A stretch of DNA of 4,476 bases. Origin: a virus. Taxonomy: Duplodnaviria; Heunggongvirae; Uroviricota; Caudoviricetes. The DNA lies in the IMG/VR virus record IMGVR_UViG_2627853967_000001; one strand, given 5' to 3'. Position numbers and translations under genes: made by a program. Under the pieces are notes generated by a model that was not told the origin of the DNA, did no database searches, and worked only from the letters and a program-made list of their open reading frames with translations. Numbering within the stretch: the first letter of the stretch is position 1; each line of letters opens with the position of its first letter. Below are positions 519 to 4,476 of this stretch, one piece after another.

Positions 519-1943
519 CTACCTCAAGGCAGCCAGTAATTTGTCTGCATCGACAGGATTTTTGGGCGGAATGTTTTTCCGGGCTTCATGGAGTTCTGCC
601 CGTAGTTCCTGATATTTCTCATCAACAGAATTTACCTGTGACTGAGCATCCAGCGGCTGCGTGTTCTGATGATGTTCAGTTGCATCCGGTTCCATTGTTT
701 CAGCCGTTGCCTGTTCATCTGCCATTGCGCCAGATGGCTGCGTTTTTTCTTCATCATCCTGTTTTCCTTCTTCTGTTACACGTTGCGGCATCGGGGCAGA
801 GGAGCGACCGCAGGCAATATCCACGATTTCCGGATCAGGGTTGGCATGATCGGTTTCAGTCAGTACCTTGTTCAGATATTCAGTGACGTGAGCGGGGATG
901 ACCTCGATACCAATCGGTGCTTCTTTCACTGACGCAACCACGATGGCGCGGGAATAATCCATCCCGCCAGGCATGGTGATGAATTTGTCGCGGAAAACAG
1001 AAAAGGGCGGTTTATTTTCAGCGATAATTTCCTCGACACGTTTAGCGTGTGCCGGATGAAGGTTATAAATGTCCACGTCCATTGAACGAGCCAGTACGCC
1101 AGTGGCTACGTCGCGCGCCAGTGACGTCAGATCGTGAACGAAACCTTCGCCGCGATCGGTGAGGTTCCCGCCGCCAGCATTAGCGCCGGAAGCCGTGCGC
1201 GTGATGCGTGAAACACGATTTCCTTTCATCCACTCTTTTGTCAGCAGACCGCGATCGGTGTAGTCTGCGTCCATGTATGCTTCGAAAAAAGCAGTCATCA
1301 GCCCCAGGCTTGAATTGCCTGGATTAGGGAAAACTCTGTCAGTATCACGCACCAGTTTGTGGAGATCGCGAATTTCCAGCGGATCGAGCAGGCTGGTTTT
1401 GTGGGAAACAGCCAGGGCAGTAACAGCTGGTAGTTCTTCATCCCGAGCAATGTGTAATGCCTGGAGTTCGTCGCGTGAAACGTGCGTTACTGGTTTTTCG
1501 CTGCCGTGTTGCGCAAGCCAGCGAATGGGCAGTTCCTGACCGGAAACTGGCAGGAGCATGTTCTCCTCAATTTCTGTCATGTCTTCGCCGTTGACGTTGG
1601 TATTGTCAGTGCTGGCCGGTTTGTCCTGAACAGAGGGAGAAGATGCGATAAATACCATTGTGATGCCATCTTCCCCGCCTTTTTCGTAACGGTTGCAGAA
1701 TTCCGTATCAAATACGCCTTCTGGCGGGAGGTCATCAACAACGGGCAAATTGACGCGAACAGGTTTTTTAAAGTCATCTTCATCGTAGCCTGCATCGTCA
1801 ATCGCAACAGCACCACGGGAGATGGCAATGGATAATTTTTTCGCTTCAGCCCAGTAAAAACCGCCTTTAATACCGAGACGTTTTCTTACTTTGTCATTTT
1901 TTGCTTCGTAATACAGTGGGTAAACTTGTTTATCGGTGTTCAT
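519..1943 (-). CDS. recE: RecE-like exodeoxyribonuclease VIII, N-terminal region only (474 aa); probably truncated or inactive
   Basis: Long minus-strand ORF with ATG at 1943..1941 and a GAGG motif about 10 nt upstream. The translation contains stretches I recognise from Rac prophage RecE ([80 protein letters not shown]). It lies immediately downstream of racC/ydaE/kilR homologues. It ends at TAG 519..521, whereas K-12 RecE is 866 aa with a C-terminal nuclease domain. Confidence 0.65.
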
Positions 1944-2784: not shown

Positions 2785-2844
2785 GGAAGCCTCCTTAATA
2801 AACAGTCTTACAAAGGAAATCTCAGGAAAGTTATTTAATACTTA

Positions 2845-2849
2845 GCAGC
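2845..2849. repeat. IS2 target-site duplication, GCAGC (copy at IRR side)
   Basis: The 5 bp immediately outside the IS2 terminus at 2850 are gcagc, identical to the 5 bp at 4181..4185 outside the other terminus. IS2 makes 5-bp duplications. Confidence 0.8.
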
Positions 2850-2890
2850 TGGATTTGCCCCTATATTTCCAGACATCTGTTATCACTTAA
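2850..2890 (-). repeat. IS2 right inverted repeat (IRR), terminus ...CA
   Basis: The 41 bp at the element end share GCCCC, TCCAGACA and TATCACTTA blocks with the left repeat. Confidence 0.7.
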
Positions 2891-3766
2891 CCCATTACAA
2901 GCCCGCTGCCGCAGATATTCCCGTGGCGAGCGATAACCCAGCGCACTATGCGGATGCCATTCGTTATAATGCTCGAACGCCTCTGCAAGGTTCTTTGCTG
3001 CCGTTAACCCGTCTGGTTTGGGCATGATACTGATGTAGTCACGCTTTATCGTTTTCACGAAGCTCTCTGCTATTCCGTTACTCTCCGGACTCCGCACCGC
3101 CGTGTTCTTCGGTTCAAGTCCCAACATCCGGGCGAACTGGCGTGTTTCATTAGCCCGGTAGCATGAACCATTATCCGTCAGCCACTCCACTGGAGACGAC
3201 GGAAGATCGTTGCCGAAGCGGCGTTCCACCGCTCCCAGCATGACGTCCTGTACTGTTTCACTGTTGAAGCCGCCGGTAGTCACCGCCCAGTGCAGTGCCT
3301 CACGATCACAGCAGTCCAGCGCGAACGTGACACGCAGTCTCTCTCCGTTATCACAGCAGAACTCGAACCCGTCAGAGCACCATCGCTGATTGCTTTCTTT
3401 CACGGCCACTCTGCCTGTATGTGCCCGTTTCGATGGCGGTACAGCAGGTTTTCGCTCAAGCAACAGCGCATTCTGGCGCATGAGCCGGTAAACACGTTTG
3501 GCATTGATCGCAGGCATACCATCAAGTTCTGCCTGTCTGCGAAGCAGCGCCCATACCCGACGATAACCATACGTGGGCAGCTCTCCGATAACATGGTGTA
3601 TACGGAGAAGCACATCCGTATCATCAGTGTGACGACTGCGGCGGCCATCCATCCAGTCATCGGTTCGTCTGAGAATGACGTGCAACTGCGCACGCGACAC
3701 CCGGAGACAACGGCTGACTAAGCTTACTCCCCATCCCCGGGCAATAAGGGCGCGTGCGCTATCCAC
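2861..3766 (-). CDS. insD: IS2 transposase OrfB (InsD), 301-aa frame; normally expressed as an InsCD fusion by -1 frameshifting
   Basis: The translation [23 protein letters not shown]...[29 protein letters not shown] matches IS2 InsD along its full length. It overlaps the insC 3' end in the -1 frame. Confidence 0.9.
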
Positions 3767-4134
3767 TTTTTTGCCCGTCCATATTCAACGGCTTCTTTGA
3801 GGAGTTCATTTTCCATCGTTTTCTTGCCGAGCAGGCGCTGGAGTTCTTTAATCTGCTTCATGGCGGCAGCAAGTTCAGAGGCAGGAACAACCTGTTCTCC
3901 GGCGGCCACAGCAGTAAGACTTCCTTCCTGGTATTGCTTACGCCAGAGAAATAACTGGCTGGCTGCTACACCATGTTGCCGGGCAACGAGGGAGACCGTC
4001 ATCCCCGGTTCAAAGCTCTGCTGAACAATTGCGATCTTTTCCTGTGTGGTACGCCGTCTGCGTTTCTCCGGCCCTAAGACATCAATAATCTGTTCTCCAA
4101 TGACAAGTCTAAAAACTGGTATTAAGACTATCAC
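3724..4134 (-). CDS. insC: IS2 OrfA (InsC) regulatory/DNA-binding protein; conserved 121-aa region is 3724..4089; the canonical start codon position reads ATT
   Basis: The translation ...[53 protein letters not shown]...LLPGDGE matches IS2 InsC. The codon where InsC normally begins (4089..4087) is ATT, not ATG, though it is still preceded by GGAGAACAG. The only in-frame NTG upstream is GTG at 4134, inside the left inverted repeat and with no Shine-Dalgarno. Confidence 0.8.
3766..3772 (-). other. Programmed -1 ribosomal frameshift heptamer A-AAA-AAG (insC to insD)
   Basis: Minus-strand sequence GCA AAA AAG TGG in the insC frame; a shift to -1 reads AAA AAA GTG GAT AGC, the start of the InsD frame. 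It sits exactly at the insC/insD overlap. Confidence 0.6.
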
Positions 4135-4138
4135 TTAA

Positions 4139-4180
4139 ATAAGTGATACTGGTTGTCTGGAGATTCAGGGGGCCAGTCTA
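4139..4180 (-). repeat. IS2 left inverted repeat (IRL), terminus TA; contains the palindrome TATCACTTA-TT-TAAGTGATA
   Basis: Revcomp of 4139..4180 is TAGACTGGCCCCCTGAATCTCCAGACAACCAGTATCACTTAT. Confidence 0.7.
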
Positions 4181-4185
4181 GCAGC
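4181..4185. repeat. IS2 target-site duplication, GCAGC (copy at IRL side)
   Basis: Identical to 2845..2849. Confidence 0.8.
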
Positions 4186-4364
4186 TGCTCTACGGTCATA
4201 TTTTTAATTGCGCTCCGGTTTACAAGAGCCCACCCCTGTTTTTCCAGATAAAACTGGAAAGTATCCAGGGTACAGACCAGTGCACCGTCAGGAACAGTTT
4301 CGGTGAATCTGATATTGCCGTGTTCGTCGAAGTGCACAACCAGAGTGCGACCGTTACCCGGAAT
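4181..4364 (-). pseudogene. Internal fragment (61 codons) of an unidentified prophage gene, cut by IS2 on both sides; its last 4 codons and stop lie at 2831..2849
   Basis: Open minus-strand frame across the whole 184-bp segment: IPGNGRTLVVHFDEHGNIRFTETVPDGALVCTLDTFQFYLEKQGWALVNRSAIKNMTVEQL. Removing IS2 and one copy of the duplication joins it in frame to ...LSIK-TAA (stop at 2831..2833), 47 bp upstream of kilR. The ORF-track entry 4131..4337 is this fragment read through into the IS2 left repeat. Confidence 0.45.
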
Positions 4365-4476
4365 TAGACTGGCCCCCTGAATCTCCAGACAACCAGTATC
4401 ACTTATTTAAGTGATAGTCTTAATACCAGTTTTTAGACTTGTCATTGGAGAACAGATTATTGATGTCTTAGGGCCG
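4365..4476 (+). mobile_element. IS2, second copy, left end only (continues beyond window), + orientation
   Basis: 4365..4476 is identical to the reverse complement of 4069..4180 (IS2 left repeat and insC leader), starting TAGACTGGCCCCC. Confidence 0.9.
4411..4476 (+). CDS. insC: IS2 OrfA (InsC) of the second copy, 5' part only; canonical start position 4456..4458 reads ATT
   Basis: GGAGAACAG ATT ATT GAT GTC TTA GGG CCG encodes (I)IDVLGP. The in-frame GTG at 4411 is the only upstream NTG. Confidence 0.45.
   Translation, partial: MIVLIPVFRLVIGEQIIDVLGP

Follow-up and report, generated by a model that had tools for sequence, protein, structure and literature searches.

The 4,476-nt stretch of viral DNA analysed here (the window) ends in two left ends (IRL) of the insertion sequence IS2 that face each other across 184 bp. 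The first copy (copy 1) lies wholly within the window and the second (copy 2) is entered from its IRL end and cut off by the window end, which raises the question of whether copy 2 is a genuine second insertion, a breakpoint left by rearrangement between IS2 copies, or a product of assembly. The coordinates of the features discussed are collected in Table 1.

Table 1. Features of the window bearing on the origin of the two IS2 copies.
Feature	Position	Strand	Remarks
IS600 3' end	1 to ~515		truncates recE
recE C-terminal fragment	519-1943	-	474 aa, Exonuc_VIII domain
Last four codons and stop of rha pseudogene	2831..2849	-	..L SIK and stop; severed by IS2 copy 1
GCAGC, left target duplication of IS2 copy 1	2845..2849		5 bp
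IS2 copy 1, complete	2850..4180	-	1331 bp; from length, ends and target duplication
IS2 copy 1 orfB	2861-3766	-	
IS2 copy 1 orfA	3724-4089/4134	-	
IS2 copy 1 A6G -1 frameshift motif	3766-3772	-	AAAAAAG
Inner arm	4069..4180	-	first 112 nt of IS2 copy 1 from IRL tip
GCAGC, right target duplication of IS2 copy 1	4181..4185		5 bp
Spacer, 184 bp	4181..4364	-	3' part of Rha-family regulator pseudogene, codons ~217-278 of ~282
GGAAT, target pentamer abutting IRL tip of IS2 copy 2	4360..4364		predicted to recur at far end
Outer arm, start of IS2 copy 2 (IRL end)	4365..4476	+	inverted relative to copy 1; exits window

Megablast against complete E. coli genomes identified the window as a Rac-like prophage remnant with IS600, a recE fragment, a racC-like gene, ydaE and kilR, and none of these genomes covers 80% or more of it. 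In exact-protein look-ups the locus was placed in Shigella flexneri chromosomes, with which the window shares 99.8–99.9% identity and in which ipaH-type and sit-type genes adjoin; the matching accessions belong to S. flexneri serotypes 2a, 2b, 3b and others (PMC9455713). The truncation by IS600 is widespread in Shigella, as 865 blocks of the public collection have the exact product of the truncated recE. The IS600 fragment of the window has a private 1-nt homopolymer deletion (AAA to AA) at ~47–49, which frameshifts orfB, and is mismatched at position 1, where all other examined IS600 copies and the S. flexneri references have a C; these also have the extra A. The deletion and the mismatch may be contig-end sequencing error or private mutation.

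The spacer between the two IS2 ends belongs to a gene whose E. coli homologues are annotated as Rha family phage regulatory protein, and it is 100% identical to the S. flexneri loci and in the ancestral orientation. Intact Rha homologues have 282–283 codons, and codon mapping placed copy 1 four codons before the rha stop (..VEQLL/SIK and stop) and copy 2 at about codon 217. Reconstruction and translation of the S. flexneri gene revealed a frameshift near codons 190–197 that is independent of both IS2 insertions. The target is thus not the small gene that had been supposed from the sequence alone, being a Rha-family regulator of ~282 codons that was already frameshifted in S. flexneri. The insertion of copy 2 has no coding consequence, and since rha was dead before the second hit it costs nothing and is neutral. 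Annotators call the S. flexneri gene as a 210-aa ORF and a 97-aa ORF (seen in L003, 6850–7763). A second, intact Rha paralogue of 282 aa was observed in another prophage of S. flexneri WACK01000005.1 (L034, 782–3500), with an IS2 ~450 bp upstream; IS2 may land repeatedly in the neighbourhood of Rha genes. Scanning 3950–4476 for promoters and terminators gave nothing over background.

On the basis of its length, ends, 5-bp duplication, two overlapping ORFs, DDE (rve) transposase and sequence identity, copy 1 is an IS2 element (IS3 family). Its tips are an IRR at 2850 (TGGATTTGCCCC...) and an IRL at 4180 (...GGGGGCCAGTCTA), which form imperfect terminal inverted repeats (IRL TAGACTGGCCCCC... against the IRR) and recur in the 14 other IS2 copies compared. 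Over its 1331 bp it shares 99.4% identity with an E. coli element annotated as "IS3-like element IS2 family transposase", and the Pfam domains HTH_Tnp_1, HTH_21, rve and rve_3 are recorded for products identical to its own. In four draft contigs (UDXB01000125, UDUY01000049, UDSL01000155 and UEKU01000153; L027–L030), IS2 seems to end after orfA or to join unrelated prophage or fimbrial genes, and these joins may reflect either mis-assembly through IS2 or true rearrangement mediated by it.

The two arms were found, by repeat search and by a direct string test, to be 112 nt each and 100% complementary, with 184 nt between them. The perfect inverted repeat of at least 112 bp and the two left ends facing across the spacer, as described in the sequence-only reading, are therefore exact in their coordinates. 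At the inner edges the pairing ends at 4181 (G) against 4364 (T), that is, at the IS2 terminal nucleotide on either side, while on the outer side the pairing runs up to the window end, which makes 112 nt a lower bound. As single-stranded DNA the 408-nt stretch would fold into a 112-bp stem at −160 kcal/mol compared with −41 ± 4 kcal/mol for shuffled sequences (z = −27). A perfect inverted repeat of 112 nt cannot have arisen by chance.

In its visible 112 nt copy 2 matches the IRL end of copy 1 without a difference, and its tip abuts non-IS DNA. The filled junction reads ACCCGGAAT/TAGACTGGCC (a slash marks the join), or GGAAT/TAGACTGG around the pentamer. In S. flexneri references the same site is empty and reads ...CCCGGAAT/CATCTTGTCAGCGG, i.e., ...GGAAT/CATCTTG (the unoccupied sequence being given also as CCCGGAATCATCTTG and as CCCGGAAT/CATCTTGTC). 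The tip of copy 2 and the continuation of the empty site have no common sequence and no shared k-mer. The junction targets of the two copies differ (GCAGC and GGAAT), which makes them separate insertion events and upholds the earlier description of the hits as independent.

The second junction was sought elsewhere. An exact match to GACCGTTACCCGGAAT/TAGACTGGCCCCCTGAATC is absent from GTDB representative genomes, JGI metagenome contigs and IMG/VR, and among 5,426 complete E. coli genomes, searched by BLAST with the junction region and with all 408 nt, none joins the 184-bp segment to an IS2 in inverted orientation. The unit of IS2, spacer and IS2 likewise had no second occurrence in GTDB representatives, JGI metagenomes, IMG/VR or complete E. 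coli genomes. None of 27 S. flexneri records has the second junction, and the evidence for it is the window itself; from this one sequence, we consider the junction of copy 2 to be real.

The same 27 records date the two insertions relative to each other. They are distinct and comprise 24 complete chromosomes and three draft assemblies of several serotypes, sampled through the exact RecE-fragment, RacC-like, IS2 OrfA-variant and KilR products from the collection blocks with the longest contigs. Copy 1, identical junctions and an identical 184-bp segment are present in 27/27, and the second site is empty in 27/27. The closest relatives differ from the window at 4–5 positions over 4364 nt and are collinear with it without copy 2. 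Judged from these sequences, copy 1 is ancestral and fixed across S. flexneri, and the source sequence has copy 2 as a private insertion.

A private junction at the end of a sequence may also be suspected of being an artefact, in which copy 1 alone is dominant and the end of copy 2 comes from a mis-scaffolded or gap-filled contig, a minority subpopulation or a chimeric molecule. Several observations fit such an origin: the repeat arm stops exactly at the window end, as a draft contig end would, there are private errors near the left end of the window, the junction is in no other assembly searched, the window-specific ORFs (a 68-aa truncated rha/IS2 ORF and a 147-aa IS600 ORF that results from the private deletion) are without record in exact-protein look-ups, and the draft S. 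flexneri contigs L027–L030 mentioned above show odd partial IS2 joins. It may be speculated, too, that 112 equals k−1 for k = 113 in a de Bruijn assembler. However, neither collapse nor mis-threading of a repeat can make a new junction, since reads containing the join must exist, and a join at the IS2 terminal nucleotide against unique rha DNA is the signature of a transposase. The variant positions 63–94 nt from the tip, moreover, are of the minority type and not of the majority type expected of a collapsed consensus. A chimera formed by fold-back should be palindromic with no unique centre and require microhomology, of which GGAAT and GCAGC share none. A palindromic contig end of this kind was rejected, as the 184 bp at the centre do not form a palindrome and the turn coincides exactly with the tip of IS2. 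An artefact is considered quite unlikely on these grounds. The earlier warning of assembly error is a reasonable concern for the DNA beyond the window, but neither collapse nor fold-back explains the junction that lies within it. An inverted structure of 2.85 kb, if copy 2 is complete, is hard for short-read assembly.

The locus is probably best explained by a recent, private and simple IS2 insertion beside an ancestral IS2, in a decaying Rac-like prophage of Shigella flexneri. Copy 1 would have entered rha four codons before its stop and then become fixed species-wide. The later insertion, that of copy 2, would have taken place at GGAAT with the orientation reversed, leaving 184 bp between the two (179 bp without the duplicated GCAGC of copy 1). 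IS2 transposition begins with cleavage of the IRR, which is joined beside the donor-inactive IRL; replication then yields a minicircle whose two abutted ends both attack the target, and the target is directly duplicated as a result (Lewis et al., 2012; PMC3299598). By this copy-out/paste-in route, a minicircle cleaved at both abutted ends would have integrated at the rha site with a 5-bp duplication. The expected outcome would be a full 1331-bp copy 2, then GGAAT and then the remaining rha, so that the far end under simple insertion would read ...GGGGCAAATCCA/GGAAT/CATCTTGTCAGCGG, or in a longer form ...TAGGGGCAAATCCA/GGAAT/CATCTTGTCAGCGGACGG. The same pentamer had been expected at the far end in the sequence-only reading, and we predict that this is right because copy 1 and the 14 other examined IS2 copies show 5-bp duplications. 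A complete copy 2 would make the locus a quasi-palindrome of 2.85 kb with a 184-bp centre. The pair, whose function is not evident, would be a neutral by-product of continuing IS expansion.

A head-to-head IS2 pair is a plausible substrate for inversion of its centre by recombination, as had been pointed out for this locus; such inversion would be RecA-mediated. The window was not found to be the product of such an inversion: the 184-bp segment is oriented as in the 27 records and GCAGC is still in direct repeat around copy 1. The ancestral orientation of the spacer and the retained direct repeats indicate a simple second insertion and not an inversion. The same observations bear on the proposal that copy 1 gave rise to copy 2 by replicative intramolecular transposition (adjacent inversion-duplication) instead of reinsertion of a free circle. 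The copies are inverted, close together and of the same terminal variant, as that event would have it, but it would also have inverted the spacer and split the duplication, while the spacer is ancestral and GCAGC is direct on both sides. In addition, transposition of IS2 proceeds through a circle, in whose first step the IRL is inactive as a donor (PMC3299598). Intramolecular transposition is thus considered extremely improbable.

The junction could, on the other hand, be real and still be a rearrangement breakpoint, at which copy 2, after inserting at GGAAT, has recombined with another of the ~29 IS2 copies with inversion or deletion, or copy 2 could be truncated; GGAAT and the remaining rha would then not follow it. 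IS copies are sites of heavy rearrangement in S. flexneri genomes, the DNA past rha varies by strain (L007 has manXYZ-side genes where others have ipaH), the IS2 copies of L035 and L038 are without matching flank duplications, which is the signature of inter-copy recombination, and the visible part of copy 2 is 112 nt only. Nevertheless, full length and matching 5-bp duplications are the rule among the examined IS2 copies, the closest relatives show collinearity at the locus, and both head-to-head pairs in finished genomes (see below) are simple double insertions. A breakpoint or a truncated copy is accordingly regarded as unlikely. Under the simple insertion that we favour, it is by inference that copy 2 is taken to be complete, to carry a duplication at its far end and to have the donor discussed next.

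As regards the donor, the bases at 4087, 4105 and 4118 of the window (A, A and G) separate two IS2 types. Position 4087 (mirrored at 4458 in copy 2) is the third base of the canonical orfA start, which is ATT here and ATG in the other type. This start position lies in the inner arm (4087–4089, minus strand), and both arms are of the ATT type. Gene callers pick an upstream GTG in ATT-type IS2, resulting in a 136-aa OrfA and a 424-aa fusion. The ATT type was found at 2 of the 12 sampled S. flexneri IS2 sites, namely rha/kilR and a DUF1376 gene ~32 kb away. As the terminal variant is known at only those two sampled sites, the donor of copy 2 was probably either copy 1 or the copy in the DUF1376 gene. 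The common variant could instead have come from gene conversion between neighbours, or from an assembler re-using reads, and not by descent from copy 1. At the rha/kilR site itself, with the same GCAGC duplication, the ATG type is present in L005, L007, L008 and L009 and the ATT type in L003 and similar records, which suggests that IS2 copies do undergo gene conversion.

That copy 2 is a donor-proximal "local hop" of copy 1 is a possibility that we hold to be somewhat doubtful. Without the canonical orfA ATG, copy 1 should need transposase in trans or inefficient initiation. Were a local hop the true origin, the locus would be a natural case of a crippled IS2 copy that is still mobilised, an example of short-range reinsertion by a copy-out/paste-in element, and a case of a 2.85-kb quasi-palindrome with a 184-bp centre tolerated in the Shigella chromosome.

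Two independent insertions in one small gene had been called unusual. IS2 pairs of this kind within ~700 bp were found in 4 of 6,778 IS2-bearing E. coli records, so the description is correct per genome, but the pair is unsurprising in Shigella, with 29 IS2 per genome and sites clustered ~10-fold. S. flexneri 301 has 229 IS, 29 of them IS2, with IS2 still active (PMC7373316), and IS2 belongs to the five IS expanded in S. flexneri, many insertions being private to single strains (Hawkey et al., 2020; PMC7373316). The ~10-fold clustering was obtained from 158 IS2 sites in the part of the ISMapper table used from that study of 343 S. flexneri genomes, with 47 of the 343 strain columns, in which sites are given as coordinates of an IS-free S. 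flexneri 301 reference. On a uniform model 1.6 adjacent gaps of 200 bp or less would be expected among these sites; 16 were observed, a count that no simulation out of 5000 attained. Within the sites tabulated this excess points to hot spots of a regional kind or to tolerant zones. Tight clusters of up to six sites within 3 kb were seen in the same table, e.g., at 2474445–2477156, 1460958–1461610 and 2132414–2134226.

We regard the pair as everyday IS traffic of a Shigella genome, of a kind known before. It carries little biological weight, copy 2 being one more private IS2 among ~230 IS copies, in a dead gene. The junction sequence is usable as a strain-specific typing marker, and the locus flags an inverted structure of 2.85 kb that is beyond short reads and a possible site of recombination or instability. 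The ATT-start variant and the clustering of IS2 sites are small leads on IS2 donor choice and target preference.

Compared with known systems, copy 1 is the same as IS2 of Escherichia coli and Shigella in size, terminal repeats, 5-bp duplication, orfA/orfB arrangement, A6G motif and rve products. Copies 1 and 2 both differ from the majority of IS2 in the ATT, not ATG, at the canonical orfA start, a minority variant. The nearest precedents for the pair are in E. coli. Strain EC261 (NZ_AP027423.1) has two full 1331-bp IS2 copies with facing IRLs, 130 bp apart in one fimbrial adhesin gene (target duplications GTTTG and CACCA), and O111:H2 strain 12A (NZ_CP077479.1) has a head-to-head pair with a 502-bp spacer in a tail-fibre region (TTAGA and GAAAC). 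These pairs are unlike the window in host, gene and sites, and both copies are fully sequenced in them compared with one here.

With a composite transposon the window is alike in geometry only, having inverted IS2 copies that flank a segment. The passenger here, unlike that of a composite transposon, is 184 bp of a dead gene, and the outer ends would be IRR–IRR. IS2 derivatives with two right ends do circularise, though at a junction spacing that is wrong for the junction promoter, and no circles come from those with two left ends (PMC3299598); this predicts that an IRR–IRR composite would have poor activity. It is the IS expansion of Shigella, as reported by Hawkey et al. (2020; PMC7373316), that copy 2 resembles as a strain-private IS2 insertion.
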